A DNA stretch of 64,000 nucleotides from an uncultured virus (IMG/VR IMGVR_UViG_3300047548_000808) (taxonomy: Duplodnaviria; Heunggongvirae; Uroviricota; Caudoviricetes), in IMG/VR virus record IMGVR_UViG_3300047548_000808; one strand, 5' to 3'. This document shows positions 3,319 to 63,564 of this stretch, piece after piece. Below the pieces are notes generated by a model that saw nothing but the letters and a program-made list of their open reading frames with translations, had not been told where the DNA came from and did no database searches. The number at the start of each line of letters is the position of its first letter. Position 1 is the stretch's first letter. The position numbers and the translations under genes were made by a program.

Positions 3319-3350
3319 AAGAGCCTGGGTTAAACTAACCCAGGCTCTTT
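3319..3350 (+). terminator. intrinsic terminator
   Basis: AAGAGCCTGGGTT/AACCCAGGCTCTT hairpin followed by T. Confidence 0.75.
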
Positions 3351-4732: not shown

Positions 4733-7700
4733 ATGGCAACTAAGAAGTCTGCAGAATACGATGCCGATAGTGTAAAGCATCTTGGTTCCCGCGAGGCAGT
4801 TCAGCAAAAGACTGCAATGTACGCTGGTAGTACAGATGAGCATGGACTGTTCACCTGCCTACGTGAAACTACAGATAATATCATTGATGAAGCAATCAAT
4901 GGGTATTGTACAGAGGGTGAAGTAGTAGTATTCAAGGATCTAGAATACTGGGTACGAGATAATGGGCGAGGAATGCCTATTGGAATGATGACGGTTATTG
5001 ATTCTGTATCTAATCGGCCACACAAGATTCCTGCTATCCAAGCTATTACTTCTCTGCTACACGCTGGAGGTAAGCTGAACGACGAAGAGGATTCTGCGTA
5101 CAAGATTAGCCGTGGATGCTTCACTGGAAATACCAAAGTTCGTTTGCTTAATGGAAAAACGGTAACGTTCGCTAAGCTATACAAGCGCTGGCTGAAGAAC
5201 CAAACTCCAATAGATGTTCTTACATATGACCTGAAGAAGCACAAGCTGGTTCCAACCAAGATCAGCAATGTTATTCTGTCTAAGTATGTGACAGAAACAG
5301 TCACTGTGCATACGTCTAACGGTGGCAAGATTGAATGCACACCAGATCACAAGTTCTATACTAATACTGACGAAGGTAAAATTCGGCCGGTTCCTGCTGG
5401 AAAACTAGAAGTAGGTACTTCGCTGGTTACTACTTATATCAAAGAGGATATGTATGGGTATACCAGACAGACCTGTCTAGGAAAATGGGATTGGGTGCAT
5501 CGTATTGTTGGTTCGCGTATTGTGAATCGTGATATTGAAATGCACACAGAAATGGTTCATCACGAATCTAGGGTAAAAACTGATAATCGCCCAGTAAATC
5601 TAGAAGTAATTTCGCGGGCTAATCATACTAGAGAGCACCTAGAACATCTTGTTGAACATAGTCGCCAGAAGATTATGGAAACGCAGGCAGATCTCCGTGA
5701 AGACAACTCAGCTAGGTTTACCTCTCAAAATTCTACAGAATGGCATAAGGCTCAAGCTGCTCAGACTAAAGCAATTAATATTGCTGTGCGTATTATGCAC
5801 GCTGATAGTAACGGCCAACGAGACTTGACTAAAAAGATATACGAAAAAACCAGAATCGCCAACGAATTCTCCTGGGATACATGCGTAAAATGGTTTGGCG
5901 GAGAGGAAGCTTTTCTAGAAGCCGTTCGAGAAAACTACGAATATCTAGCTTCACGTATAAAGAAATCCTATATTGCTGAGGATAAGCTCTCCGGTAACTA
6001 TACTAAATACAACGTAGACCTAAAGAAAAACTCAGACACAGCACGAATTAATCGTTTCGCTGAGGCCCTCAATGTTTGTGCAGATCCAAGGACTGCTACT
6101 CCACGAGAGTTTAACGAGGCTAAGGGAGATTCAGTATTTGGAAGGTATGCCAAACTATGTGCTACGTCTTCATTGAAGAACTTAAAGTTACACGTACTGG
6201 ACGGAAAGCCCTTTAAGGAACTGCTTGATCTTAGCGCTGAAGATAAGCTACAGAGAATGATTATTGCAGAAGGAAAGGTTCGTACCAGGCAAAGTTTGGT
6301 AAAATCTTCCAATAAATTCATGGGCTCGTGCAAAGCGCGTGGCATCAAGGATCTTTTCTCTCCACGCGCTGTTAGTTTGTATACTGCAGCAGCAAAGGAT
6401 AAGAAAGTTGGCGCACAAACTTTCCTACTTAATTTGCACTTTCTCTCGATAGTTCACGGAGAAGAGGAAGAAATTAAGCAGGTCTATAATAACTACAATT
6501 GCAACGTAGTTAAGGTAGTACGTCGAAAGTATAATGAACAGATTCCTGTATTTGATTTGACTGTTGACAATCCAAGCCATTGTTTCTTTGTTGATACAGA
6601 GCACGACTGGAGAAATGCAGAAACTCATGTCCTAGTTTCGAATAGTCACGGAGTGGGGCAGAAGCTACCTAATTTCCTGTCCTTTAACTTTGAAGTCTTT
6701 ACTTTTTCTTCGCCAAAAGCCGGAACACCAAAGTACTGGCACTCGATCAAGTACACAAATGGTAAGCTTACTTCCGAGCTTGCAAAATGCCCTACCCCAG
6801 TTCATCCTGTAACTGGAAAGAAGGTTGATAAGGGCACAATCGTAAAATTCAAACTGAACCCAAAATTCTTCACAGCAAAGTCCTTTCCCCCCTCCCTTCT
6901 GCTAGAATACCTGCAGACCTCTAGTTATTTTACGCCAGGATTTACTTGGACGCTAACTGCGGCAGCTTCTGGTAAGACCAAAACTTATCACTCAGAGAAC
7001 GGTGCTCTGGACTATATTACAGAGTACAAGTCGAAGCTACCTAAGGTGGCTTCCATGAAGCCCAATAGTATTTTCATCTGTTCATCTCCCGTTATGGATG
7101 TAGCCGTTGATTTTACTACCGCAGAAGGAAATCACCTGAAGGGTTTCACAAATGGTCTGTTCAATGCAGAAGGTGGAGATCACGTAGACTCATTCTTTCG
7201 CTCACTACAGAAGTCATTGGAGCCATATAAAAAGAAGGGAAAGGACTTCACCCTAACAGAAATCAAGGAAGGTGTTCTTGGTATTGTAAACGCCAAGCTG
7301 GCGGCTCCTAAGTTCTCTTCGCAGGTGAAAGTAAAGCTTCAGGACGAGCGCGCAGCGGAACCCTTCCGTAAACTTCTGCAGGTAGAGTTAGACAAGTTTT
7401 TCAAGAAAAACAAAACGCTAGCTGAAGCAATTTGTGCACGGTGTGCCGAACTGAAGAACCTACGTTCCAAGTTTCTTGCTTCCAAGCAAGTTGTTATGGA
7501 GCTACGGAAGATTGCAAAGAAGGGTTTTCCAGTCAAAGCTTTAATGGCTCCAAAGTGCAAGGCTTCTGAGCGTGAGCTATACCTAGTAGAGGGTGACTCT
7601 GCTATGGGTGGTATCACTGGTGTTCGTAACGCACACTTTCAGGAAGTGTTCCCCCTGAAGGGCAAGATCATGAATGCCCACCGTGCTACATCCGCCAAGT

Positions 7701-8191
7701 TCTTCCAAAATGAAGAAGTGCTTAATATTCTTGCTATGATTGGATTTGATCCTAAGGCCGCAGATCCTTATTCAAATTTAAGAGTTAGCAAGTTAGTCTT
7801 TATGACCGATGCCGATGCAGACGGAAGCCATATTTCTGTTCTACTCCTCAGTATGGTCCATAAATATTTCCCAGAACTCATTGAACGAGGAATTATCTAT
7901 GTAGCAGAAGTACCAGAGTTTATGGCTATGGTAAAGGGAAAGCCAGTGTACGCAGACTCCAAGGACGATATGAAAAAGAAGCTGGAAGATCTAAAGTCTC
8001 CAAAGGCTAATGTATTCCACTTCAAGGGTCTAGGTGAAATGGAATCCGATGTTCTTGGAGCGGTAGGCATGAACCCTGCAACACGAATGCTTCGACAAAT
8101 CACACCAACAGACTCCCCTACGTATAATGAAGACTTTATTTCCATTGTTTCTGGTGACGCAGGCTCGCGTCGTACCCTTCTAGGCATTTAA
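4733..8191 (+). CDS. gyrB: type IIA topoisomerase subunit B (GyrB/ParE-like), intein-containing
   Basis: GHKL motifs E..DNIIDE, DNGRGMP, LHAGGK, HGVG; TOPRIM motifs LVEGDSA, PLKGKIMN, MTDADADGSHI, FKGLGEM. Confidence 0.92.
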   Translation: MATKKSAEYDADSVKHLGSREAVQQKTAMYAGSTDEHGLFTCLRETTDNIIDEAINGYCTEGEVVVFKDLEYWVRDNGRGMPIGMMTVIDSVSNRPHKIPAIQAITSLLHAGGKLNDEEDSAYKISRGCFTGNTKVRLLNGKTVTFAKLYKRWLKNQTPIDVLTYDLKKHKLVPTKISNVILSKYVTETVTVHTSNGGKIECTPDHKFYTNTDEGKIRPVPAGKLEVGTSLVTTYIKEDMYGYTRQTCLGKWDWVHRIVGSRIVNRDIEMHTEMVHHESRVKTDNRPVNLEVISRANHTREHLEHLVEHSRQKIMETQADLREDNSARFTSQNSTEWHKAQAAQTKAINIAVRIMHADSNGQRDLTKKIYEKTRIANEFSWDTCVKWFGGEEAFLEAVRENYEYLASRIKKSYIAEDKLSGNYTKYNVDLKKNSDTARINRFAEALNVCADPRTATPREFNEAKGDSVFGRYAKLCATSSLKNLKLHVLDGKPFKELLDLSAEDKLQRMIIAEGKVRTRQSLVKSSNKFMGSCKARGIKDLFSPRAVSLYTAAAKDKKVGAQTFLLNLHFLSIVHGEEEEIKQVYNNYNCNVVKVVRRKYNEQIPVFDLTVDNPSHCFFVDTEHDWRNAETHVLVSNSHGVGQKLPNFLSFNFEVFTFSSPKAGTPKYWHSIKYTNGKLTSELAKCPTPVHPVTGKKVDKGTIVKFKLNPKFFTAKSFPPSLLLEYLQTSSYFTPGFTWTLTAAASGKTKTYHSENGALDYITEYKSKLPKVASMKPNSIFICSSPVMDVAVDFTTAEGNHLKGFTNGLFNAEGGDHVDSFFRSLQKSLEPYKKKGKDFTLTEIKEGVLGIVNAKLAAPKFSSQVKVKLQDERAAEPFRKLLQVELDKFFKKNKTLAEAICARCAELKNLRSKFLASKQVVMELRKIAKKGFPVKALMAPKCKASERELYLVEGDSAMGGITGVRNAHFQEVFPLKGKIMNAHRATSAKFFQNEEVLNILAMIGFDPKAADPYSNLRVSKLVFMTDADADGSHISVLLLSMVHKYFPELIERGIIYVAEVPEFMAMVKGKPVYADSKDDMKKKLEDLKSPKANVFHFKGLGEMESDVLGAVGMNPATRMLRQITPTDSPTYNEDFISIVSGDAGSRRTLLGI
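5117..6643 (+). mobile_element. intein (509 aa) with HNH homing endonuclease in gyrB
   Basis: Starts CFTGNTKV, block B CTPDHKF, ends VFDLTV...VLVSN before Ser; removal restores ISRG-SHGVG; internal VHRIV...VHH...KTDNRPVNLEVIS...H HNH motif. Confidence 0.9.
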
Positions 8192-10457: not shown

Positions 10458-11972
10458 ATGGCTTCAGGTAAAATGCCCGTCATCGATGCTCTTGCGCTAG
10501 CAAGAACAAACATGAAAATCTATGGGGAAGAAGTCAACTTGGAACGTTCTGTTCCAGACTTCCGTGACGGGCTAAAACCAGTAGCTCGCCGCGTTCTAGT
10601 TTCCATGAATGACATTATGGGCCTGCGTTCTACTCGTGGTGTAAAAACTGCAAAGGTTGCTGGTCACTGTATTGGTACGTATCACCCACATGCTGATACG
10701 GGGGCTTCGGATGCTGCAGTAACTCAGGTTAATCTACCTTTTCCACCGATTGAAGGTATTGGCAACTGGGGTACTCTAGTTTCGGGTGCTGGTTCTCCAC
10801 GTTATACAAACGTGGCTTTTACTAACTATGGCAGATCCTTTTTCTCCAAGCACTATCACGTTCTGGTAGACAAGGTTCCAAACTACGACTCGTCTACGAA
10901 AGAACCTCTATGTCTAGCTGCTCTTTTCCCTAACATCCTGTTCCAAGGAATCATGGGTATTGGTGTTGGTATCAGAACCAGCATTCCAGCGTTCTCTCCA
11001 ATTTCTGTCCTCAAGTTAATGAATCGACTACTTGAGGGAGAAAAACTTACTCCAGAAGACTACGCCCGTTCACTTAAATTCGTTAACCAGTACGGTGGCT
11101 GCATTGCAAAGACCAAGGAAAACTTCAAGGCCGCAGTGGAACTGTTCTCTAGTACAAAAGGTTCGATTCGCTGGAAATCCCCGCTAATTATAGACGAAGA
11201 TACAAAGTCTATAACCATAGACTCTTTTGCGCCGAATATTAATCCAGTAGAAATTCTAGACAAGAAAGTCAAACTTATTCCAGAGGTAAAATCCGTTTAC
11301 TCTGGTAAAGGACTATCATACGTAATAGAAGTAGACCGTAAGTGCAACATGGCCCAGTTTAATGCTGTGGTTGCCAAGGTAGACTCTATGTTTTCTACGT
11401 CAATGTCCTATGATATTTACGTAACCGAGCGAACCCTAGTTGATGCAGAATCTGGCAAATACAAGGTCGATTTCCACAATTTATCTATTCCCAGTTTGGT
11501 AATTCGCTGGTTAAAGTGGCGGTTGAAGCTAGAAGCTGATAGTCTAGACTATCAGATCAAACAGGCAGAAGATCGCATCAACTTCCTGAATTTGCTAGTC
11601 CTAGCATGTGATAACCTGAAGATTATCTTTGATGCTATTCGTACCCAGGCCCCGGCTGACTATCTGGTAAAGCATCTAGAAATATCGCTGGAAGACGCAA
11701 ACGTTATTCTAGACCGAAAAGTGCGTAACCTTTCTAAGATGGACAAGAGCAAGCTTCAAACAGAATTGAAGACTGTTAAGGATCATCATGGAAAGCTGAA
11801 GATCAAACGTAAGTCTCCTAGGAAGGAAGTTATTGCTTTCTTCCAACACTCTATTACGCAGATTGAAGCCTATCAGAAGTTTGCAGGAACAAGGCAGTTC
11901 AAGTTGAAGTCGGTTCCAGCATCTGTTAATGCTCTAGGTGAAGACGACGTAGAAGAGACTACGGAAGAGTAA
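10458..11972 (+). CDS. gyrA: type IIA topoisomerase subunit A (GyrA/ParC-like, no C-terminal pinwheel)
   Basis: DGLKPVARR, KTAKVAG...YHPH.D, GNWG, catalytic PRYT, GIGVG motifs. Confidence 0.9.
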   Translation: MASGKMPVIDALALARTNMKIYGEEVNLERSVPDFRDGLKPVARRVLVSMNDIMGLRSTRGVKTAKVAGHCIGTYHPHADTGASDAAVTQVNLPFPPIEGIGNWGTLVSGAGSPRYTNVAFTNYGRSFFSKHYHVLVDKVPNYDSSTKEPLCLAALFPNILFQGIMGIGVGIRTSIPAFSPISVLKLMNRLLEGEKLTPEDYARSLKFVNQYGGCIAKTKENFKAAVELFSSTKGSIRWKSPLIIDEDTKSITIDSFAPNINPVEILDKKVKLIPEVKSVYSGKGLSYVIEVDRKCNMAQFNAVVAKVDSMFSTSMSYDIYVTERTLVDAESGKYKVDFHNLSIPSLVIRWLKWRLKLEADSLDYQIKQAEDRINFLNLLVLACDNLKIIFDAIRTQAPADYLVKHLEISLEDANVILDRKVRNLSKMDKSKLQTELKTVKDHHGKLKIKRKSPRKEVIAFFQHSITQIEAYQKFAGTRQFKLKSVPASVNALGEDDVEETTEE

Positions 11973-11998
11973 CTCCGTTCTACACAATTTATTTTCCT

Positions 11999-12072
11999 GC
12001 GGCGTTGGTATATTGGTTGTGCCCTAGTCCTCCAAATTAGAGAAACCAGTTCGATTCTGGTACGCCGCTCCA
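11999..12072 (+). tRNA. tRNA-Gly(TCC) with atypical C33
   Basis: Acceptor GCGGCGT/ACGCCGC, U73, CCA; anticodon arm CTAGT-CCTCCAA-ATTAG; TTCGATT T-loop. Confidence 0.85.
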
Positions 12073-12087
12073 AATAAAAAACACTCT

Positions 12088-12177
12088 GCCCGAGTGGTGA
12101 AACTGGTTAGACACTGCAGTCTTAAACGCTGCCGAACGGAAACGTTCATGTCGGTTCGACTCCGACCTCGGGTACCA
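12088..12177 (+). tRNA. tRNA-Leu(TAA)
   Basis: GCCCGAG/CTCGGGT acceptor, A73, CCA; long variable arm; loop CTTAAAC. Confidence 0.92.
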
Positions 12178-12185
12178 AACACCCT

Positions 12186-12353
12186 GCACACACTAGCGTA
12201 ATCAGTGAAACATGAGATCCGAGCCGGTTTGCTTAAAAATCCTGTGAACGTATGGGAACAATAATGGCTTATACCCAAGCAAGGACACGTCTTATACTTT
12301 TGTGTATATTGTCTCGCAGTGATAGGATAAAAGCGAGTAATAAATTTCTATCA
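12186..12353 (+). ncRNA. putative structured RNA of unknown family
   Basis: Nested helices ATGAGAT/GTCTTAT, TTGCTT/AAGCAA, GTATGGG/CTTATAC, then a pseudoknot CTCGC/GCGAG plus TGATAGGA/TTCTATCA. Confidence 0.4.
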
Positions 12354-12371
12354 ACTAACTAGGAGAAGTTT

Positions 12372-13010
12372 ATGGTAACAGTTGCCAAGCGTATTGATGC
12401 TATACAAACAGGCTTTACTATAAGCGATAAGTACAAAGATCTAATTATACGTAGAATTAAGAAGTCTATAAGACTAAATACGGTAAAGGATCTAAATCTT
12501 CTTGTTGGTCGTCTATGTCCTATCTTCCTAACAGGAGATAAGAAAACATATTTTGCTCTTCAAGAACCACTTGATCTGGAAGACGTTAATGAAACTTGCG
12601 TTGTTCATTACCTAAATAACGTAGAGTACCTTGATCTTCCTCTAGTGGAAACTAAAGTTCCAGTCCAGACCTTTGTATGGAAATCACCTGATGCTGATCC
12701 ATATCATATGGCAGGAATAGCTAAAGACGTAATAATCAAAATTCTACTAAAGAAGCACAAAATAGTAGGATCAGATGCTACTCAGTCTGACGATGGCGCT
12801 AGATTTTGGCGTTCACTGGTAACTGGTGCGTTGACAACATATGGACCAAATAAAATATTTGTATATCTACATGATATTAGATTTGGAAAATACGTTCAAC
12901 TACCTAGAATCGCTCACCCAAGTGAGCTTGATGAACTGATAGTTTGGGGTAAAACTCCTGAGTTTAGTAAGACAAGACTTCTGATTTCGCTTAAGCCAAT
13001 CGAAATCTGA
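12372..13010 (+). CDS. hypothetical protein, possible GNAT-like fold
   Basis: AGIAKDV...IVGSDATQSDDGARFW motif; AGGAGA RBS. Confidence 0.55.
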   Translation: MVTVAKRIDAIQTGFTISDKYKDLIIRRIKKSIRLNTVKDLNLLVGRLCPIFLTGDKKTYFALQEPLDLEDVNETCVVHYLNNVEYLDLPLVETKVPVQTFVWKSPDADPYHMAGIAKDVIIKILLKKHKIVGSDATQSDDGARFWRSLVTGALTTYGPNKIFVYLHDIRFGKYVQLPRIAHPSELDELIVWGKTPEFSKTRLLISLKPIEI

Positions 13011-13030
13011 TACTGTTAACGAACTAAGTA

Positions 13031-13120
13031 GGAAGCGTGGCGGAGTGGACTAACGCATCGGCTTTGAATACCGACGTTCCTTAAACGGAACCGTGAGTTC
13101 GAATCTCACCGCTTCCGCCA
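13031..13120 (+). tRNA. tRNA-Ser(TGA)
   Basis: GGAAGCG/CGCTTCC acceptor, G73, CCA; long variable arm; loop TTTGAAT; C31.A39 mismatch. Confidence 0.9.
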
Positions 13121-13146
13121 ATTATAGTAGTAAGAAGGATTAGAAT

Positions 13147-13854
13147 ATGAAAAGTAGGTCTAATCCGAAAATACAAGAGTTCTTTTTATGGCTTCTGTAC
13201 AAAGATCGTATATCTGTGTACGACGATGGTACAGTTATAAACAACATAACGGGTACAGAGTATAACGCCACAGACTCTAGTGGGTATAAGAAGGTTTCTT
13301 ACTCATATAAGAAAAAGATCTGGCAGATACAATCGCATAGGCTAGTTTGGGTAGCGTTCAACGGACCTATCGAAGACGACTCTCTTGTAATTAACCATAT
13401 TAATGGTATTAAGTCAGACAACAGACTAGTTAACCTTGAACTGGTATCTGTAGGAGACAACGCCAGGCATGCCGTTAGAACTGGTTTATCTAGAGTACTT
13501 AGGAGCGAAGAGAAGCCTAACGCGGTGTTTACTAATGATGATGTAAAATATCTTAGAAAAGCCTTCGCTAATAATGTACTTTCTATACAAGAAATACAGA
13601 TTAAATACAAGTGTTCATTTAACACGGTTAAATCTATGCTTGTAGGTTACACTTACTACAGTATAAACACGAAATACTGTCCAGCATGCAAGCAAATTTT
13701 GCTTTCTATGTCTGAAATCAGTAGACGAACAGTAAATGCAATTAGTAGTTCACTAATATTAAAAATACAAGAGCTACATATCCAAGGACTTTCCAGTGTA
13801 GGAATAGCCAAAGCTCTTGGTATAAATAGAAATACCGTAATGAAGTATTGGTAG
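13147..13854 (+). CDS. free-standing HNH homing endonuclease with C-terminal HTH repeats
   Basis: SHRLVWVAF...INHINGIKSDNRLVNLELVS...N..HA; C-terminal IAKALGINRNTV HTH; lies between two tRNA genes. Confidence 0.9.
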   Translation: MKSRSNPKIQEFFLWLLYKDRISVYDDGTVINNITGTEYNATDSSGYKKVSYSYKKKIWQIQSHRLVWVAFNGPIEDDSLVINHINGIKSDNRLVNLELVSVGDNARHAVRTGLSRVLRSEEKPNAVFTNDDVKYLRKAFANNVLSIQEIQIKYKCSFNTVKSMLVGYTYYSINTKYCPACKQILLSMSEISRRTVNAISSSLILKIQELHIQGLSSVGIAKALGINRNTVMKYW

Positions 13855-13862
13855 AGTTTGAC

Positions 13863-13937
13863 AGGCCGTTAATTCAAAGGTTAGAATAGGAAACTCATAA
13901 TTTCTCAATCCGTGTTCGAGTCACGGACGGCCTACCA
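13863..13937 (+). tRNA. tRNA with CAT anticodon, probably Ile2 (elongator Met not excluded)
   Basis: AGGCCGT/ACGGCCT acceptor, A73, CCA; loop CTCATAA; C4:G69 and C5:G68 pairs as in TilS substrates. Confidence 0.88.
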
Positions 13938-13962
13938 TCATCTTTTACTGCAAATAAGTTTA

Positions 13963-14062
13963 GTCATCCTGGTTAGGCATGTCGGATTAGCCCCGCATAC
14001 ATCCCCAAAACCCTTGGTTCCTGAAGTTAAAATGCTGCTTTATGCAAGCTAGTCAGGATGAC
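13963..14062 (+). ncRNA. putative 100-nt structured RNA
   Basis: 14-bp closing helix GTCATCCTGGTTAG/CTAGTCAGGATGAC (two G.U pairs), then GCAT/ATGC; non-coding; inside the tRNA cluster. Confidence 0.5.
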
Positions 14063-14073
14063 ACCTAACTTAG

Positions 14074-14174
14074 TATTAGCACTAAGCCTGACTGTAGCTC
14101 AACAGGAAAGAGCAGCTGCCTTCTAAGCAGCAGGTCGGGAGTTCGAGTCTCTCCAGTCAGGCTTAGTGCTAATA
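14074..14174 (+). tRNA. tRNA-Arg(TCT)-like element; body 14088-14161, no CCA, acceptor stem extended to 21 bp
   Basis: D arm GCTC/GAGC with A20; anticodon arm GCTGC-CTTCTAA-GCAGC; T arm GGGAG-TTCGAGT-CTCTC; perfect inverted repeat 14074-14094 / 14154-14174. Confidence 0.85.
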
Positions 14175-14270
14175 AGATTTTTATAATGCAGCAGCACCGC
14201 AACAACCCTGGGACACCGGGCGCTGCTTTAACCCCTGAAGTGTCCTGGGAAACTCGAAAAGGAAATAAAA

Positions 14271-14693
14271 ATGGCTACCGTAAACGTAAACAAGGTTCTT
14301 GAGCGCTCTGCTGCTACTCTAGCTAAGGTACAAGGTCAGCTAGCTGCTGCAATGGCCAGCGCTACCGCAGCTCCTGTTGCAAAGAAGACTTCTGCCAAGG
14401 TTGCAGAAGTTGCTGCTCCTGCTAAGCGTGGTCGCAAGGCTGCTGTTGCAGAAGTTGTTGAAGCTCCTAAGCGTGGCCGTAAGGCTGCTGTAGTTGCTGA
14501 GGCTCCAGCCAAGCAAACTCGCAAGAAGGCTGCTCCTGTTGTTGAAGCGGCTCCTGCTAAGCGTGGTCGCAAGGCTGCTGTTGCAGAAGTTGTTGCTCCA
14601 GCTAAGGTTACTCGCAAGAAGGCAGTTGTTGTTGAAGCTCCGGTAAAGAAGAAGTCCAAGAAGGATGATTCTGGTTTCGGTGACTTCGGTTAA
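14271..14693 (+). CDS. histone H1-like Lys/Ala-rich DNA-binding protein
   Basis: Repeated APAKRGRKAAV units; strong RBS; followed by a long hairpin. Confidence 0.75.
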   Translation: MATVNVNKVLERSAATLAKVQGQLAAAMASATAAPVAKKTSAKVAEVAAPAKRGRKAAVAEVVEAPKRGRKAAVVAEAPAKQTRKKAAPVVEAAPAKRGRKAAVAEVVAPAKVTRKKAVVVEAPVKKKSKKDDSGFGDFG

Positions 14694-14702
14694 TTAAAAG
14701 CT

Positions 14703-14739
14703 AGAAGAGCCCAGTTAGCATGCTAACTGGGCTCTTCTT
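14703..14739 (+). terminator. intrinsic terminator / long palindrome
   Basis: AGAAGAGCCCAGTTAGCA/TGCTAACTGGGCTCTTCT perfect palindrome. Confidence 0.75.
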
Positions 14740-14748
14740 GCGTGGTGC

Positions 14749-14838
14749 TTGACAGCCGATTCGATCTGTGGTACAATGGATTGTGGCTGAAACCACGCCC
14801 TTGTTACAACATGTTACACTCCAGCTGAAGGAAATAAA
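14749..14838 (+). promoter_or_regulatory. sigma70-type promoter with leader and RBS, repeat copy 2
   Basis: TTGACA(14749)-17-TACAAT(14772); about 90 nt shared with 18231-18320. Confidence 0.85.
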
Positions 14839-14841
14839 CTC

Positions 14842-15684
14842 ATGTCCTCTAATAAAGTCCAAATGATTGTTGTTGATTCTGGTGAACTCTACGTGTTCGG
14901 TAAACTCATTAGCCGACACCCAGATTTCCCGTGGCTCTTCTCGATTACTGACGTGTATAAGGCTTGTGAAAAGCCTATCAAAAAGGAAGCCTTACGCAAG
15001 GGAAAGAAACCAGATACGTTCTTTAAGACGCGCGCTCCAGGTCAATACATAAGACAAACTGTACTAAATCCTCCTATACATAATATAGGTAATAGATTAC
15101 GAGATAAGTATAAGGTAAAAACTAGCATATCAAATAGAGATTTATGTATTAAAGTATATGAAGGCAATAGAAAAGATAAATTACAAGGAACATACATAGC
15201 ACAAGATCTTATTCCAGGCTATATCGACTTTCTTCAGATTCCTGAGTTGTCTTCAGAGTACCATAAACTCTTCCCTACTTCTAGCGAAGCTATCGTCAGG
15301 ACAATAAAACAACATAACAAATCAAGAGCTGAACTAGAATTTAGTAAGTATCTTCACGCAGCAGCTAAAGTACACAAGTGTGAATTAATTACTCAGAAAA
15401 CAGAACTAGATAAATACAGAGTAGATTTTATATTTTATTCAAAACGAAGGCAAGCTGCATGGTTAATTGAATTTGATGAAGACCATCACATTAGGCAACA
15501 GGAAGAAGATAATACAAGGTGGTCTGAGATTAGAGAACGCTATAGTAAGTTCACCCGTAAACCCAACAATGGTTTCTACTTCGTGAGAGTGTCCGAAGGA
15601 CAACATGAAGAGTTCTTTGTGAATTTTCTTACCTACCTTAATACAGGTAACTTTAATAAACTGAACTTCATTCATGTAAACTGA
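14842..15684 (+). CDS. KilA-N domain protein fused to a DUF559/Vsr-like PD-(D/E)XK nuclease domain
   Basis: FSITDVYKA...GTYIAQDLI (KilA-N); YRVDF...LIEFDEDHH...D..R nuclease motif. Confidence 0.7.
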   Translation: MSSNKVQMIVVDSGELYVFGKLISRHPDFPWLFSITDVYKACEKPIKKEALRKGKKPDTFFKTRAPGQYIRQTVLNPPIHNIGNRLRDKYKVKTSISNRDLCIKVYEGNRKDKLQGTYIAQDLIPGYIDFLQIPELSSEYHKLFPTSSEAIVRTIKQHNKSRAELEFSKYLHAAAKVHKCELITQKTELDKYRVDFIFYSKRRQAAWLIEFDEDHHIRQQEEDNTRWSEIRERYSKFTRKPNNGFYFVRVSEGQHEEFFVNFLTYLNTGNFNKLNFIHVN

Positions 15685-21358: not shown

Positions 21359-21546
21359 GTGGTTTCTTCGTAGTTTTATACGCGCTGTCTACAGCCATAC
21401 TAGGAACACTACTTATAGTTCTTGTAGCTAATAAATATGTTCTAGGATTGTCATTAATACTGCTGCCAGTAGGATCATTCATATTCTCGATTTTAGTAGA
21501 GATATTAGTAAAGTACTTAGAAATCTTAAAACGTAAGATCAAGTAA
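21355..21546 (+). CDS. small membrane protein
   Basis: Two hydrophobic helices; ATGA overlap with the upstream gene. Confidence 0.6.
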   Translation: MSGFFVVLYALSTAILGTLLIVLVANKYVLGLSLILLPVGSFIFSILVEILVKYLEILKRKIK

Positions 21547-21589
21547 AAAGGCCCGGTTGAACTTAGTGTTCAACCGGGCCTTTTCTTTT
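21545..21589. terminator. bidirectional intrinsic terminator
   Basis: AAAAGGCCCGGTTGAAC/GTTCAACCGGGCCTTTT between convergent genes. Confidence 0.85.
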
Positions 21590-31762: not shown

Positions 31763-33223
31763 ATGACTGCTGTATTTACAAAGTATACAAGCCAAAACTC
31801 TATTCATAACCTTGAAGTACCAGACTTAGTGGTGGGAGAAACCGTAACTACAGCGAGTATTCAACAAATAGCTCCCATCACATCACCTGCACTAACGATT
31901 AGCATGTTAGCTACTGCAGCGAGTTCTGTAAACATAGAACTCGCTGCAGGACAAAATGAAACAACATACGGATTTCTGCTAAATGCAGTAACTAGCAACA
32001 ACAGAACTATACAAATTAGAGGTGCAGTATACGTTACCTCAGACGTATCAGTTCCATTCAGTTCCCAAGACCCGTACTCGTTTCAGTCTATATTAGGATC
32101 AATAGAGACTGGGCAGGCGGGTATAGCAAAAGGCTACTTTGTACTAGGGCCAAATACAACAGGAGCACATGCTGGATATGTTAGATGGTCAGTTCTATCT
32201 AATGATGGAACTATATACTCAACTGGAAACGCATATGAATACGTAGTTACACAGAACTCTTTTATGGATGCAGTTGAGGCCACTTCTGTAATTCACATAC
32301 CCTCTGATACTCCTCCATCTTCTGAGAACTCAGCCTATCAAATTCGTTGGGAGCTGATTCTTCCAAATACTGAGCCTATATACCTTTTTGAGAACCTTAC
32401 AGTTCTTGGAGGCACTTCGGTTCCACTAGGAGCACAGGACGCAGTGGAAATGCAGGGAGATCCTGCAACGATGTACCTAGTTCTTAATAAGCTATATGAC
32501 TCAGTTCTAGCTGAGGTTTATACTGGAACAACAAAACTACTGTCTATAGTGCCCACAGGAAAGCCTGTAAAAGTATCTTCCGGCTACTTGTACCAAGTTA
32601 CTATGGATACTACTAGTGTTGGAGCATCACTGGATCCAATAACTATAACATGGAAGTATTTCAACGCAGCAGCACCGCACATAGTTAGTAGAGAAACAGC
32701 CAAGTTATTTATAGTTAATCCTCCTATACTTACTGCGATAGAAGACTCCAGAATGCAGGTGTCTAAAGCTCGTACAACACTGTTTGGATACGAGGATGCT
32801 ATATTTGATACCTCTACTATACTTTCCTGGTTGCGTCGTGGAAGAGATGACTTCAATGCTGCAGGAGGGCTATTCACTACGTTTGATATGTCAGTAGCTA
32901 CAGGAGCCCTACGTTCCTACTGGTTGATGTATTCAGAAATAGCTATGTTAAGGGCTCAGAGCCTAGCCGAAGGTGAGAAAGCATTCAATTTTAGTGGACA
33001 GGCTATATCGCTAGAGGTAGACAGAACAGCTTACTATGATAAGCTTGCAGATTCTTTGCAATCACAAGTTGATTCTAATATTGGTCCACTGAAAAAGAAC
33101 CTTGCGATGAAGGGCATAACTAGCGGAAACGGGGATCTTAACTCTACTCACGGTGGAAACAGACCAATGCTAGGCATTTCCATACATCCTGCTACTAATA
33201 TAAATAGATACGGATGGCGTTAA
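31763..33223 (+). CDS. putative virion structural protein
   Basis: Beta-rich N-terminal part and helical C-terminal part; function inferred from context only. Confidence 0.5.
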   Translation: MTAVFTKYTSQNSIHNLEVPDLVVGETVTTASIQQIAPITSPALTISMLATAASSVNIELAAGQNETTYGFLLNAVTSNNRTIQIRGAVYVTSDVSVPFSSQDPYSFQSILGSIETGQAGIAKGYFVLGPNTTGAHAGYVRWSVLSNDGTIYSTGNAYEYVVTQNSFMDAVEATSVIHIPSDTPPSSENSAYQIRWELILPNTEPIYLFENLTVLGGTSVPLGAQDAVEMQGDPATMYLVLNKLYDSVLAEVYTGTTKLLSIVPTGKPVKVSSGYLYQVTMDTTSVGASLDPITITWKYFNAAAPHIVSRETAKLFIVNPPILTAIEDSRMQVSKARTTLFGYEDAIFDTSTILSWLRRGRDDFNAAGGLFTTFDMSVATGALRSYWLMYSEIAMLRAQSLAEGEKAFNFSGQAISLEVDRTAYYDKLADSLQSQVDSNIGPLKKNLAMKGITSGNGDLNSTHGGNRPMLGISIHPATNINRYGWR

Positions 33224-33519
33224 CTATGAAGTTCAGTAGACCATTCGTTAAAAGAAATAGTACTGGAGTATCAAGAATAATCAGAGACGGTTATCATACC
33301 CCAGACAAGTCCTGGTATGAGCGTGGGGCAGAAATTCGAGAAAGCAGCAACTATACTTGTACATGCGGAAAATATCTTGGAAAAGGTAAAGGTCATGTAC
33401 ATCATATAATACACCGAGGACGGGGCGGACTAACTGCCAATAGAAATCTAGTACTTTTATGTGAAGAGTGCCATGAAGCTAAACATCCACACATGACTAG
33501 AAAACGCCATCCTGCTTAG
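33214..33519 (+). CDS. small HNH endonuclease
   Basis: HVHHIIHRGRGG....NLVLLCEECHEAKH. Confidence 0.85.
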   Translation: MALTMKFSRPFVKRNSTGVSRIIRDGYHTPDKSWYERGAEIRESSNYTCTCGKYLGKGKGHVHHIIHRGRGGLTANRNLVLLCEECHEAKHPHMTRKRHPA

Positions 33520-45432: not shown

Positions 45433-45466
45433 AAAGGCGGGATTGTTTAAACAATCCCGCCTTTTC
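45433..45466 (+). terminator. intrinsic terminator
   Basis: AAAAGGCGGGATTGTT/AACAATCCCGCCTTTT. Confidence 0.85.
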
Positions 45467-51804: not shown

Positions 51805-52132
51805 GGACTTAACTGAGTTCGTTTTAACGTATGTAGCGCCGAACCAGATGGCGCTATTTAACGGTATTGAGGACGCAGCAGTCATATTAAAAGATACCCT
51901 AGGCGACGACCCCCGCCTGGGGGCTTTTTCATTAACGGCCGAAAAGTATTTGACTTTCGGAGTTAAAGCTAGACTTGCATCTGAGGTATCAAGGCTTCTA
52001 GATCTAACTGAAGTCGAGCGTGATCTGTTTCTACTACAAGTAGTATCGAAAGACTTCTCCGTTGACATGACTTCAGAAGCTATAAATGCTATGCTAACAA
52101 AGATAGCCAAGAAAGGCGGATCTAATGGCTAG
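51467..52132 (+). CDS. hypothetical protein overlapping the upstream ORF in the +1 frame
   Basis: AAGGA RBS 8 nt before the ATG; stop overlaps the terminase start. Confidence 0.6.
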   Translation: MKSLNLPMAVVSPSLAKALSEEYNKKQRPKLSRQQVLEEQSLREAQNHPFLNFLETLEEEPKKQKLQVKQKKLQLKISPQPLPPKPAPSNKYLLDRSSSLSKQLPSLVNQKTKDLTEFVLTYVAPNQMALFNGIEDAAVILKDTLGDDPRLGAFSLTAEKYLTFGVKARLASEVSRLLDLTEVERDLFLLQVVSKDFSVDMTSEAINAMLTKIAKKGGSNG

Positions 52133-55100
52133 TTTAATTAAGCCTAGTTGCATGAAGTGTAGCAAGTATATTGCTTGCAGAGATCCATTAAAGGGGCCAA
52201 AACACTCATGCAAGTCTTTTGTTAGACTAAAAGAGATAGGATCTTTTGAAGATCTGTACGCATCTATTTCTATGCTTCCGCAGGGAGTCGAAGACCCAGA
52301 CATTGCACTTGAAAAAGAAACCTCTGGTATAAAGATACGGGATCTAGTTGACGCTACTCCAGGTATTGCTAAAACAAAGCGAGTTTTAGATGGGGTAAAA
52401 ATAGCAACGCCAGAAGAAGTTAAAGGCGGAGTAAACGATGTGGAAGGTGACTTCATTTGGCAAGCAATGCAGTCTTCCTACGATCCGTTTACTAACTCAG
52501 TGCGGGACATCAAGATTGACGACCGAGCACTAAAGCTATCAACAAACTATTATCATTTCTGTACTAAGATTGCAGGGTCCGCTATCAAAGCACCATTTTC
52601 TAGGCAGCTATATGTAGCGATGATACTGCTAGGAGAATACTGTCCAAGATGTACGGATGAAAAATGGCTAGATATTACTAACGTTCCAGTAGACATGGAA
52701 TCTAAGGACTTAGTTAAGAAGGTAGTTCTTCTAGACAATGGAGTATGTCCTAAGTGCTCTGCCACAAAATCAGGATTGATTCTTGGTGGAGAGATGAAAG
52801 ACTACAATGAGCTTGCTATTGTTCAGGGCCAGCGTTGCGTTGTTGGAGCTACTCGATTACAGACTAGGATAGGATTCAAGACCTTTACTGATCTTGAGGA
52901 AATTCACGCTGACTCCAGCGGCTCCACTGGATTCGTAGAATATAAGGGTCCAGACCTAGTTGACTACGATGGAAGTTTTGTGAGGCCATCATACTTCTAT
53001 AGATCTGGAAAAACTAAAACTCTAAAGCTAACTACTAGCATAGGCCAGGAGCTTACTGGAACTCCAGAACATCCGTTGTGGACTAAACACGGTTGGAAAA
53101 AACTATCCGAGCTAAAAGTTGGTGATGAACTAGAACTTCATATAGGACAAGATGCTTGGAGCACAGACGAGTTCTCGCTAGAAGGAATGGCTGACTCCAT
53201 TATCCTGAGTGAACATCATACTAGGCATCAACAATCAGCTAGTACACTAACTCCCAAAATAGCTGGTCTTATTGGGTTCTTAGTATCTGAAGGCAGTTCC
53301 TACGTAGTTGATGACGTTCTAAAATCAACCAGGATACATAACAATGATATAAATGTTATTAACTATTGCAAGGAAGCCATACTCACGATATTCCCTTCGG
53401 CTACGCTACAGTATAGAGACAATACTTTATTTATAGGAGAAATGCATACAAGACTTTTCCTTAATAAGCTAATGGATAACCGTCTTATAGTAGATAGAAA
53501 ATCTGCTGGACGAGTAGTACCAAGTTGCATAAAAGTATCACCAAAGCCTGTAGTGCAAGAATTTCTTAGGTGTATGTTTGAAGGAGACGGAGGGCTTAAC
53601 GGTAATAGCGTAGAGTACACCTCAATCAGTAAGACTCTAGTGGCAGATTTACACGCTATGCTATTAAATATTGGTATACCCTGTAGAGTAAGAAGCAAGA
53701 TGGCTTGGGCCAGTAACGGTAGTTCTGAGCAAGTAAGTAAGCCCTGTTATATACTAGAAGTGTCTGGTTCATACGCAGTATACAAGTTCAAGGAGATCAT
53801 AGGATTTAAGAGCCAAAGAAAGAACGCACTTCTTAGTAAAAAAGCATCTCTATACAACAACTATGTACGAGAAACAGAACCCTCTTGGTATGGTTACCTT
53901 AGTTCAGTTGATAGTTCTAGAGTTATTGCCATGTACGAAGAAATAAATTCGGAGCTTAGGGCTGGTAGAGTAAAGTACTATAACGGGGGGCGCAGTTCCC
54001 AGGTAAGTCTACGTAGTGCATTCCAACTACGGGTTAGAACAACTACAGGGCTTGTCACAAAGTATAATGCTGCCTTACTTTGTAATTCTGTACTAAATGC
54101 TTCAGATATAGTAGTTCACCTGTCTGACTCAGTACTAAAAAAGCTTAGGTATATTAAGAGACTATCGGAAGACAGAAGTACTATACACATTACAGTTAAG
54201 TCAGTGTCTAATGAGGAAAAACAAGAAACATACGATGTACATATACCAGGTACACATAGGTTCATGGCTGAGGGCCTTCTAAATCATAACAGCGGAAAAT
54301 CGGCTTTCTCTTCAACGCTTTCTGCATATCTACTTCATAGATACATGAAAGCGCCAAGAATGTCCGATATCTGTCGAGGCATTCAGGAGTTCACGCCACT
54401 AACTGCTACTTTCGTAGGACTTACAGCAGCGCGAGCAATCAAGAACTTGTGGAATCCATTCATGTCTATCGTGAACGGAAGTACATGGTTCACTGAGTAT
54501 TTTGAAATGCTACGTGATTATGGACGTAGGTATGACAAAGAACTATACAAACGTGCAGGTCTTTATCTACGTATTTTTCATAGAAATCTAGACCTATACC
54601 CTGCTCCTCCGCTTAAGCGCACTCTACGTGGCGATACTCGTTTCTTGGGTGCAACTGACGAACTTAGCTTCTTCAACTTTAATCCCAATAAGAATGCTGA
54701 TGGAGACGACGATGACGAGGAAAAGGAACATGCTGATGGCGAGGAAGTTCAGCAGTCCCTATCGAACTCTCTAACTACGGTAAGAACAGAAGTTTTGCAC
54801 CTGTATAAAAAGGGAATTAATACCATTCCTACTGGTTATAATCTTAGTATGTCCTCCCCGTTTTCGGAGAACGATACTTTATGCAGACTAGAACGGGATA
54901 GCCATAACGAAGATTCTCTTACTTTTGGTATCAGGCTGCCTACTTGGGAAGTTAATCCATTATACCAAAGAAATCACCCCATCATCGTAGAAGCCTATCG
55001 TAGAAATACAGTAAAAGCAGAACGTGACTTCGGAGCTAATCCTCCCCAGATCACGAGCGCTCTGTATCAGCCTGGAACTATTGAAATGCTGTTTACTCCA

Positions 55101-55847
55101 GGTAGACCTAATTCACATAGACTACTATACCTAGATCATGTAAAGTATACCCGTGGAAAGTCAGTTCACGTAACACCTAAAGACGCATATCAACCAGCAA
55201 TTATGACACTGGATGCAGGTCTAGTTAATAACGCATTTGCTATGGTAGTAGCTCACCGTAGGGATACGACAATGGAAGTTGATCTAGTTATTGAACTAGT
55301 TCCACAGCCAGGAAAACAGGTTGACTTTCCATTCTTATATGATAATATAATTCTACCTATTATTAAGGATATGAACGTAGTTCTAGTATCAGCAGATAGA
55401 TGGAATAGTATTAATATACTTCAGCAGATAGAAAAGGACGTGGAAGGATGTAAGGTTAGTCAAAAGACTCTACAATACAAGGACTTTACTCATTTTAGTG
55501 CATCAGTGTACGCAGGAGAGGTTAAACTACCTGCATTAGAGATGCCTATGGATAGAATACTAGTAGTTAGAGACTTTAAGAAAGAACTACTAAATGCTCC
55601 TATATCGCACCTAGCACTACAGATGACTACAGTAAAGGACACGGGCGTTGCAGTTGTAAAGGGTGATGGTTACACTGACGACATGTTTAGGGCACTAGTT
55701 CTTAATCATCAACAGATGTTTTCTACCAAGCATAAAACACACATGAATAGGGCTAGAATTAAAAGCTCAAGTGCAAAGAAAACGGATAAGTCTCGCGCAT
55801 TTGTTATATCAGCGCCTAGGTCTATATATAGCAGGGGTGGAATGTAG
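52125..55847 (+). CDS. terminase large subunit, intein-containing
   Basis: Walker A GQR-SGKS restored after intein removal; Walker B GATDE; PTWEVNP, RDFGA, nuclease TLDAG and TDDMFRA. Confidence 0.85.
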   Translation: MASLIKPSCMKCSKYIACRDPLKGPKHSCKSFVRLKEIGSFEDLYASISMLPQGVEDPDIALEKETSGIKIRDLVDATPGIAKTKRVLDGVKIATPEEVKGGVNDVEGDFIWQAMQSSYDPFTNSVRDIKIDDRALKLSTNYYHFCTKIAGSAIKAPFSRQLYVAMILLGEYCPRCTDEKWLDITNVPVDMESKDLVKKVVLLDNGVCPKCSATKSGLILGGEMKDYNELAIVQGQRCVVGATRLQTRIGFKTFTDLEEIHADSSGSTGFVEYKGPDLVDYDGSFVRPSYFYRSGKTKTLKLTTSIGQELTGTPEHPLWTKHGWKKLSELKVGDELELHIGQDAWSTDEFSLEGMADSIILSEHHTRHQQSASTLTPKIAGLIGFLVSEGSSYVVDDVLKSTRIHNNDINVINYCKEAILTIFPSATLQYRDNTLFIGEMHTRLFLNKLMDNRLIVDRKSAGRVVPSCIKVSPKPVVQEFLRCMFEGDGGLNGNSVEYTSISKTLVADLHAMLLNIGIPCRVRSKMAWASNGSSEQVSKPCYILEVSGSYAVYKFKEIIGFKSQRKNALLSKKASLYNNYVRETEPSWYGYLSSVDSSRVIAMYEEINSELRAGRVKYYNGGRSSQVSLRSAFQLRVRTTTGLVTKYNAALLCNSVLNASDIVVHLSDSVLKKLRYIKRLSEDRSTIHITVKSVSNEEKQETYDVHIPGTHRFMAEGLLNHNSGKSAFSSTLSAYLLHRYMKAPRMSDICRGIQEFTPLTATFVGLTAARAIKNLWNPFMSIVNGSTWFTEYFEMLRDYGRRYDKELYKRAGLYLRIFHRNLDLYPAPPLKRTLRGDTRFLGATDELSFFNFNPNKNADGDDDDEEKEHADGEEVQQSLSNSLTTVRTEVLHLYKKGINTIPTGYNLSMSSPFSENDTLCRLERDSHNEDSLTFGIRLPTWEVNPLYQRNHPIIVEAYRRNTVKAERDFGANPPQITSALYQPGTIEMLFTPGRPNSHRLLYLDHVKYTRGKSVHVTPKDAYQPAIMTLDAGLVNNAFAMVVAHRRDTTMEVDLVIELVPQPGKQVDFPFLYDNIILPIIKDMNVVLVSADRWNSINILQQIEKDVEGCKVSQKTLQYKDFTHFSASVYAGEVKLPALEMPMDRILVVRDFKKELLNAPISHLALQMTTVKDTGVAVVKGDGYTDDMFRALVLNHQQMFSTKHKTHMNRARIKSSSAKKTDKSRAFVISAPRSIYSRGGM
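52836..54290 (+). mobile_element. intein (485 aa) with LAGLIDADG homing endonuclease in terminase
   Basis: CVVGAT start, GTPEHPL block B, LIGFLVSEG and FLRCMFEGDGG motifs, TYDVHIPGTHRFMAEGLLNHN before Ser. Confidence 0.92.
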
Positions 55848-56262: not shown

Positions 56263-56673
56263 ATGGAGTTATCAGCTAAACAGGAGGCGGTCCTAGCCCT
56301 AAAGGAACGCCTCCTATATAAATTAAGAAAAGTATTTCACAAATTCGATGGGGCTAGGTATAGTTTTAGAAACAAACTAGGATCGGGCAGCGTATACAGG
56401 CCCGAGCTTTTTACTAAACGAGTTCATCCTTACGTATTTGTTGGGCTTGAGTTAAGAGAAACTTCATTTAAACCAAATGTAGTTGAATTCCTGAAAGAGC
56501 TTAATCCAGTTCTAGCTAGTTTTGAGTTTAACGACTTGATAGATACTGGCCCAAATTCGTATAAGGCAGTACTATTAAAAGACAATCTAACTTCTATACT
56601 AACTTTAGTACATGATAAAGGATATGTCATGGCTACATATTTAGAAGTATTCTCAGAGGACATATATGATTAA
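56263..56673 (+). CDS. hypothetical protein
   Basis: 136-aa ORF. Confidence 0.65.
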   Translation: MELSAKQEAVLALKERLLYKLRKVFHKFDGARYSFRNKLGSGSVYRPELFTKRVHPYVFVGLELRETSFKPNVVEFLKELNPVLASFEFNDLIDTGPNSYKAVLLKDNLTSILTLVHDKGYVMATYLEVFSEDIYD

Positions 56674-63527: not shown

Positions 63528-63564
63528 AAGGGTCTGTGTACGTTAGCTGTACACAGACCCTTTT
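63528..63564 (+). terminator. intrinsic terminator after the polymerase fragment
   Basis: AAGGGTCTGTGTAC/GTACACAGACCCTT followed by TT. Confidence 0.8.

Follow-up and report, generated by a model that had tools for sequence, protein, structure and literature searches.

A phage tRNA-Arg(UCU) gene enclosed by a perfect 21-bp leader-trailer helix, a possible clamped tRNA precursor

RNase III has a role in the processing of the tRNAs of phage T4, whose cluster contains eight tRNA genes, four that encode CCA and four that do not; a missing CCA is therefore ordinary in phage tRNA clusters. In ribosomal RNA, leader-trailer helices of a length similar to the one described here are RNase III substrates, and the helix of 23S rRNA comprises 27 bp and is cut by this enzyme to leave the 8-bp H1 (available part of PMC10250234). 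In E. coli pre-tRNAs, leader positions -1 and -2 paired with the 3' RCC are an RNase P anti-determinant (available parts of PMC10731613 and PMC5499578), and bacterial RNase P works about 10-fold more slowly when the acceptor stem is longer by 2 bp, unwinding being needed (PMC10731613, same part). The literature that we searched, mostly outside subscription journals, contained no description of a tRNA, from a phage or a bacterium, with a long leader-trailer helix. Our study analyses a tRNA-Arg(UCU) gene that carries such a helix.

Genome setting and the tRNA cluster

The stretch of DNA analysed, here called the window, comprises 64,000 nucleotides with 41.7% G+C and is part of a phage-like genome, that of an uncultured jumbo phage. 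It includes a module for replication and nucleotide metabolism (GyrB, which has an intein, a GyrA-like protein, ThyA, DHFR, DnaB, and PolA), and its GyrA-like protein shares about 40% identity with the counterparts in the jumbo phages BcepSaruman, BcepSauron, and phiRSL1. The sequencing runs containing the stretch are labelled as freshwater and wastewater metagenomes; the habitat was taken from the run labels only, and runs with small word shares were set aside. Intein splicing domains are present in three ORFs (4733-8191, 52125-55847, and 56666-59023) and represent three types, that of GyrB with an HNH domain, one with a LAGLIDADG domain, and one that is mini-intein-like. A further HNH ORF is located at 33214-33516, and the region is heavily colonised by selfish elements.

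Five tRNA genes lie on the + strand within 11999-14162: Gly(UCC), Leu(UAA), Ser(UGA), a tRNA with the anticodon CAU, and Arg(UCU), which is the last gene of the cluster (Table 1). The HNH gene sits between tRNA-Ser and tRNA(CAU). Contigs from two other sequencing runs, X4 and X5, join position 13135 to 13853, that is, without the HNH gene, which is therefore an insertion without a counterpart in these relatives, present or absent as segB is in the T4 tRNA cluster. Codons were counted in 40 ORFs of the window, where GGA occurs 301 times, TCA 258, TTA 136, and ATA 297, and where AGA makes up 210 of the 818 Arg codons, being the second commonest of them. The five tRNAs form a coherent set for A-ending codons that are frequent in the phage (with ATA included if the CAU tRNA is of the Ile2 type). 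A PP-loop ATPase at 883-1494 (ATP_bind_3, 3e-21), from a family that includes TilS, shares the window with the CAU tRNA. This "tRNA-Met" may be a tRNA-Ile2 that depends on lysidine, with a TilS-like enzyme of the phage to serve it.

Table 1. Coordinates of the features at the end of the tRNA cluster (window positions).
Feature	Positions	Strand	Basis or remarks
ORF interrupting the tRNA cluster	12372-13010		
Free-standing HNH homing-endonuclease gene in the tRNA cluster	13147-13854	+	HNH_3, 7.8e-15; C-terminal HTH
tRNA(CAU) with encoded CCA, upstream neighbour	13863-13937	+	ARAGORN, Rfam
Spacer element between tRNA(CAU) and the helix, about 118 nt	13955-14072	+	Predicted fold
5' arm of the extension (leader strand), TATTAGCACTAAGC	14074-14087	+	Pairs with 14161-14174
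tRNA-Arg(UCU) body	14088-14161	+	C1-G72 to discriminator G73 (14161); Rfam, ARAGORN, cloverleaf drawing
3' arm of the extension (trailer strand), GCTTAGTGCTAATA	14161-14174	+	Sequence, fold, inverted repeat
AGATTTTT, directly after the helix, 5 T in 8 bases	14175-14182	+	Direct reading
TATAAT, resembling a -10 hexamer, before the conserved 5' UTR of the following gene	14182-14187	+	Direct reading
Structured 5' UTR of the gene for a 140-aa Ala/Lys-rich protein	14185-14270	+	Shared with relatives without the tRNA-Arg module

The tRNA-Arg(UCU) body, its helix, and its flanks

The body of tRNA-Arg(UCU) matches model positions 1-71 of 71 of RF00005 with 66.1 bits (gathering score, 29), the highest score among the five tRNAs of the window, and ARAGORN also calls a tRNA-Arg with the anticodon tct in a loop of 7 nt. 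By direct reading, U8, A14, G18G19, A20, U33, C35, U54U55C56, A58, and G73 are kept, and A20 and C35 are presumably the identity elements recognised by ArgRS. The acceptor stem is CTGACTG/CAGTCAG (7 bp). G73 is followed by CTT, so that CCA is not encoded, while it directly follows the Gly, Leu, Ser, and Met (CAU) tRNAs of the same cluster.

The sequence 14074-14094 (TATTAGCACTAAGCCTGACTG) is matched base for base by the reverse complement of 14154-14174, and the 7 bp of the acceptor stem plus 14 perfect Watson-Crick pairs thus constitute an uninterrupted helix of 21 bp, hereafter the clamp. The extension is in exact register with the acceptor stem, with no unpaired base and no G-U pair (14 of 14 Watson-Crick), the discriminator G73 (14161) is itself base-paired with C-1 (14087), and five of the outer seven pairs are A-T. 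In the predicted RNA fold, a cloverleaf sits atop a stalk of 21 bp (-54.4 kcal/mol, z = -4.61), none of 200 shuffles folded as stably, and the continuous stack reaches 26 bp when the T stem is included. The clamp is the longest of the 16 inverted-repeat pairs in the window, and its 21 perfect pairs have the character of a processing helix, defined here as complementary flanks that pair over at least about two helical turns around a stable RNA. An earlier sequence-only reading had named a tRNA-Arg(UCU) with the identity base A20, 14 extra perfect pairs that make a 21-bp stem, and a CCA missing from this tRNA and encoded in the other four; the profile score, the ARAGORN call, the direct reading, and the fold agree with all of these.

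The cluster follows the usual codon-supply pattern, in which the A-ending codons used by the phage are served; this argues for a genuine decoding tRNA that is intended for charging, and we see no feature of the sequence that would favour an inert decoy. The earlier reading had suggested either a caged pre-tRNA that needs duplex cleavage or a non-chargeable mimic, this being an anticodon-nuclease decoy or a Y-RNA-like scaffold. The first of these is favoured, because a 2-bp extension slows RNase P and a 21-bp helix suits RNase III, and the mimic, the decoy, and the scaffold found no support. A tRNA-shaped RNA that is never charged, and is either a scaffold or a stable decoy that draws off anticodon-loop nucleases, would fit with a CCA that is not encoded and with ends buried in 21 bp, and phage tRNAs do counter tRNA-cutting defences; the counter-measures described in the available parts of the corresponding studies are, however, replacement or resistant tRNAs and not inert decoys (PMC10264068, PMC11464382, PMC11555353). 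In addition, the body retains working tRNA-Arg features, it makes up a codon-matched set together with four tRNAs of the ordinary kind, phage clusters often contain genes that lack CCA (4 of 8 in T4), and the gene is missing from close relatives. On these grounds the decoy appears very improbable, and it is the least supported of the readings considered.

The spacer upstream of the clamp is predicted to be closed by a 6-bp plus a 13-bp helix and ends 1 nt before the clamp; its helix includes two G-U pairs, which makes it specific to the + strand, and its fold is not significant (z = -1.48). Neither Rfam nor tRNA searches matched the spacer, and Rfam at E values up to 10 over 12150-14300 returned only tRNAs and noise; low-threshold ARAGORN calls in this spacer are spurious overlaps. 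We rejected the idea that it is the remnant of a broken older tRNA copy, as 13938-14073, aligned locally with each of the five tRNAs in both orientations, scored no better than shuffles (300 shuffles each, p 0.10-0.94). The region 13896-14062 is matched at about 92% by a relative's contig. The spacer may be a small stable RNA like RNAs C and D of T4, and its helix, despite the lack of significance, would fit a series of helix-closed modules.

Downstream of the clamp, AGATTTTT is a candidate terminator U-tract, an AU-rich single-stranded entry site for nucleases, or both. For the TATAAT that overlaps its end we found no convincing -35 element, and the hexamer is absent from the scanner output; a contig from the RNA library of run X20 starts at 14196, which is only a weak hint of a promoter. 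Contigs of the RNA library cover the 5' UTR, which holds a 10-bp stem (CCTGGGACAC/GTGTCCTGGG) with two wobble pairs. No RNA contig over the clamp arms was seen in run X20, a result that is uninformative either way, and the contigs of this run that fall on 14092-14156 show 5-9 differences and unlike flanks and were assigned to tRNAs of other organisms. The 140-aa protein (14271-14693) has no Pfam match and contains three PAKRGRKAA repeats, which resemble AT hooks or histone H1.

Long GC-rich hairpins are found at gene ends of the window (14700-14741, 21546-21584, 45433-45464, 3319-3349, and 63528-63562). The hairpins of this type (inverted repeats I2, I5, I6, and I12-I14) have perfect or near-perfect arms of 14-21 nt, loops of 0-8 nt, and A/T runs built into their stem ends, an appearance unlike that of the tRNA clamp (I1). 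They are probably the ordinary bidirectional terminators of the phage.

Rarity of the extension and its fate in relatives

The extension was compared with those of 58 tRNAs called by ARAGORN in the window and in 80 loci of distantly related jumbo phages, which came from a profile search (GyrA 24-43% identical). The perfect extension measures 0 bp in 33 of these tRNAs, 1 bp in 17, 2 bp in 6, and 3 bp in one; the remaining one, with 14 bp, is the tRNA-Arg of the window. The other five tRNA-Arg(UCU) genes of the distant relatives have 0 or 1 bp each, so that none of the five is extended. When G-U pairs and offsets of 0-4 nt were allowed, tRNA-Arg scored 14 of 14, the runner-up 11, and the bulk 5-8. 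Two further leader-trailer pairings, those of tRNA(CAU) (11 of 14 with four G-U pairs at offset 3) and of the tRNA-Arg of one distant locus, L004 (10 of 14), are within what the best of five offsets yields by chance and were discarded. The 14-bp extension is beyond chance.

Close relatives were not found in IMG/VR by a search with the GyrA-like protein, and five DNA patterns, including tRNA or arm-adjacent ones, had no match there; a 96%-identical GyrA was present in Logan assemblies only, the next best proteins being 56-59% identical. A blastn search with 14060-14190 against phage records gave 792 matching records, and the 40 matches listed lie essentially within the tRNA body, with a few that begin at query positions 16-25, inside the 5' arm. 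In Alcaligenes phage CASP1, the best 5'-arm match among those listed, the tRNA-Arg is an ordinary one that encodes CCA and lacks the extension. The 19-mer of arm plus acceptor stem was searched in 185,579 species genomes, with one match against about four expected by chance; it falls within a coding region of a cyanobacterial MAG, with no tRNA, and we consider it a chance match. The minus-strand frame across the module, searched as a protein in order to reach spurious gene calls in relatives, gave no candidates.

The closest evidence on relatives comes from the Logan contigs of four runs, which were compared with window positions 12900-15300. In run X4, one contig (record 17, 367 nt) aligns to 14076-14213 with 10 differing letters and no gaps, and its first 229 letters do not match the window. 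This relative (about 93% identity over 138 nt) has the tRNA-Arg, at least 12 of the 14 nt of the 5' arm, and the whole 3' arm; its right flank is that of the window and its left flank is different. In run X5, record 24 matches up to 14062 and continues with 280 unmatched letters, and record 25 matches from 14170 after 342 unmatched letters; therefore, the X5 relative has other sequence in the slot of the clamp and tRNA. The contig L081 was the sole match of a metagenome scan anchored in the downstream 5' UTR, which was unbiased toward the clamp. Its homology with the window starts at about 14184, with the 5' UTR and downstream gene, and its upstream part holds three different tRNAs but neither a tRNA-Arg nor an extension; no hairpin or T-run was found between its last tRNA and the shared 5' UTR. 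Within the shared region (14185-14693 in the window, 1037-1314 in L081), the 5' UTR is nearly identical, with two differences. ARAGORN calls odd tRNAs in the slot of this contig, a 92-nt "tRNA-Ile(tat)" at 518-609 and a "tRNA-Phe(aaa)" at 938-1012, and the anticodon region of the latter (tctggtctaaaaaactaga) resembles an oversized loop.

Because tRNA-Arg is missing from this slot in the L081 and X5 contigs, the gene and its clamp are, as far as these sequences tell, either dispensable or recent. Comparison of the contigs also presents the slot as a hot spot of tRNA turnover, in which the clamp and the tRNA behave as one unit, bordered by the outer arm ends. The sequence-only reading had looked to relatives for the extension, and the outcome is divided: the X4 contig keeps most of both arms, whereas L081 and X5 are without the gene and none of the five distant genes is extended.

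The strongest rival reading is that of a young, unselected palindrome, formed by template switching (fold-back priming) during replication or repair, in which the clamp has no function. The 7-bp acceptor stem would have served as a quasi-palindrome, with the leader copied into the trailer or the reverse, and the clamp may even impair the tRNA, which would then possibly be on its way to loss. Fold-back copying predicts what the arms display, namely pairs at all 14 positions, none of them G-U, in exact register with the acceptor stem, and such pairing, as the expected remains of a recent DNA-level event, counts against a clamped precursor. The clamp is moreover unique among the 58 tRNAs, the gene is missing from the L081 and X5 contigs, and the region is in heavy flux, with an HNH gene that is present or absent and a tRNA content that varies between relatives. 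Three observations oppose the palindrome. First, the arms persist in the X4 lineage, which is about 7% diverged over 138 nt and has a different left context. Second, the tRNA body is undecayed (66.1 bits). Third, unless it is processed, a clamp that blocks the maturation of a tRNA serving a frequent codon should face counter-selection. We regard the palindrome as the main rival and, taken by itself, as rather unlikely; if it is correct, the locus is a neat natural template-switch extension of a tRNA acceptor stem, with little wider weight.

The contigs lose homology near the outer ends of the arms (at 14076 in X4, 14062 and 14170 in X5, and about 14184 in L081), which also bears on a second DNA-level explanation, where a small mobile or exchangeable tRNA cassette of about 101 bp shifts from slot to slot among phage tRNA clusters, the arms serving as its terminal inverted repeats or recombination borders and the RNA helix being a by-product. 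A TA at both outer ends (14074-75 and 14173-74) and a homing endonuclease gene without a counterpart in relatives would agree with it; the TA, however, belongs to the palindrome and is uninformative as a target duplication. The 14-nt arm does not occur elsewhere in the window (with up to three mismatches there are 10 matches, against 10.9 expected), so no second copy is present of the kind that a multi-copy, MITE-like element would have. The IMG/VR scans with tRNA or arm-adjacent patterns, with zero matches, and the sole match in the species genomes, a chance 19-mer without a tRNA, speak against a cassette as well, and if the arms were transposon ends, there would be no reason for them to border the acceptor stem with not even one spacer base between. 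We consider a cassette improbable.

A proposed clamped precursor and its comparison with known systems

Our preferred reading is that a real tRNA is made as a clamped precursor, in which the leader-trailer helix is a processing stalk of the RNase III type and perhaps also the 3' stop of the cluster; we hold it tentatively, at a little less than an even chance. Judged by the sequence, the complementary flanks would most likely be a signal for cutting the tRNA precursor or for stopping it. In favour of this reading we count the canonical body, the exact register, the rarity of such flanks, the arms kept in the X4 contig, and the homology breaks at the outer arm ends in X5 and L081; against it stand the missing gene in L081 and X5 and the five unextended tRNA-Arg(UCU) genes of distant relatives. 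The five-tRNA cluster would probably be transcribed as a single long precursor, in which the 14-nt stretches on either side of the tRNA would pair and lengthen the acceptor stem to 21 bp. The helix would form after synthesis of the 3' arm and, together with the following AGAUUUUU, may bring transcription to a stop or a pause where the cluster ends. The duplex would then block RNase P and 3' exonucleases: since 2 bp already slow RNase P, 14 perfect pairs should block normal end maturation, and RNases II, T, and PH are 3' exonucleases that are expected to stall at 14 perfect pairs. Opening would require a double-strand-specific cut by a host RNase III or by one from the phage, should it have one (no RNase III domain was found in the 65 ORFs scanned, all from the window). 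Alternatively, a cut in the AU-rich tail could be followed by helicase-assisted trimming. RNase P, 3' trimming, and the CCA-adding enzyme would finally complete the tRNA-Arg.

The clamp may also end the transcription of the tRNA cluster, because the helix is followed by AGATTTTT and TATAAT and the scanner detected no other terminator-like site on the + strand in 11500-15000. As a terminator it would be atypical, given that its "loop" is the 59-nt tRNA body and that the first three bases after the helix are not T, and L081 carries no counterpart. Of the features that define an intrinsic terminator (a GC-rich stem, a loop of 3-8 nt, and a U-tract 0-2 nt after the stem), the clamp shares only the tail, with AGATTTTT agreeing with the tail rule of the scanner; the scanner, which is blind to a stem with a 59-nt "loop", does not report the clamp.

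A broader claim is that some phages make particular tRNAs as sealed precursors clamped by double-stranded RNA, whose release depends on a dsRNA nuclease. A single helix would then end the tRNA operon, shield the precursor against exonucleases, and control when or whether the tRNA becomes available; this would be a maturation route in the style of rRNA that the literature searched does not describe for tRNAs of bacteria or phages, and the clamp plus tRNA would form a self-contained unit open to exchange among phage genomes. This broader claim seems doubtful to us at present. A functional clamp would mean that the tRNA supply of a phage can be controlled at the opening of a precursor by a double-strand RNase, and not only through RNase P and exonucleases, and would extend the principle of the rRNA leader-trailer helix to tRNAs. 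The clean case at hand, with 21 perfect pairs, no CCA, and a T-run, would be a convenient test substrate.

Among known systems, intrinsic terminators are alike in having a stable helix followed by a T-rich tract at the end of a transcription unit, here before a -10-like box. The clamp differs from them in its loop, which is a folded tRNA, in the A-T-rich base of its helix, and in a T-run that begins 3 nt after the helix, and it also differs from the terminator-like hairpins of the phage itself, which are GC-rich with loops of 0-8 nt. The T4 tRNA cluster is similar in that a homing-endonuclease gene (segB) interrupts it and its tRNA-Arg lies near the small stable RNAs C and D, whereas the leader-trailer extension is 0-1 bp in all eight of its tRNA genes. 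The extended E. coli pre-tRNAs and the clamp have in common that the leader pairs with the 3' side, that the acceptor stem is lengthened, and that unwinding is needed; the E. coli extensions, however, measure 1-3 bp and include the encoded CCA, while the clamp has 14 bp and no CCA, and it is implausible that RNase P alone unwinds the latter.

In the pre-16S and pre-23S leader-trailer helices, the flanks of a stable RNA likewise pair and continue its terminal helix. By analogy with 23S rRNA, maturation would pass through a double-strand cut, which in a helix of 21 bp would leave the 7-bp acceptor stem. Unlike the rRNA helices, the clamp encloses a single tRNA of 74 nt and is a perfect helix with no bulges and no elements of the boxA or boxC type. 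Its anatomy is striking and clean, and it is a single instance, absent from two relatives. By these analogies, the rRNA leader-trailer helix would be the functionally closest system, and the 1-3-bp acceptor extension the closest phenomenon among tRNAs.
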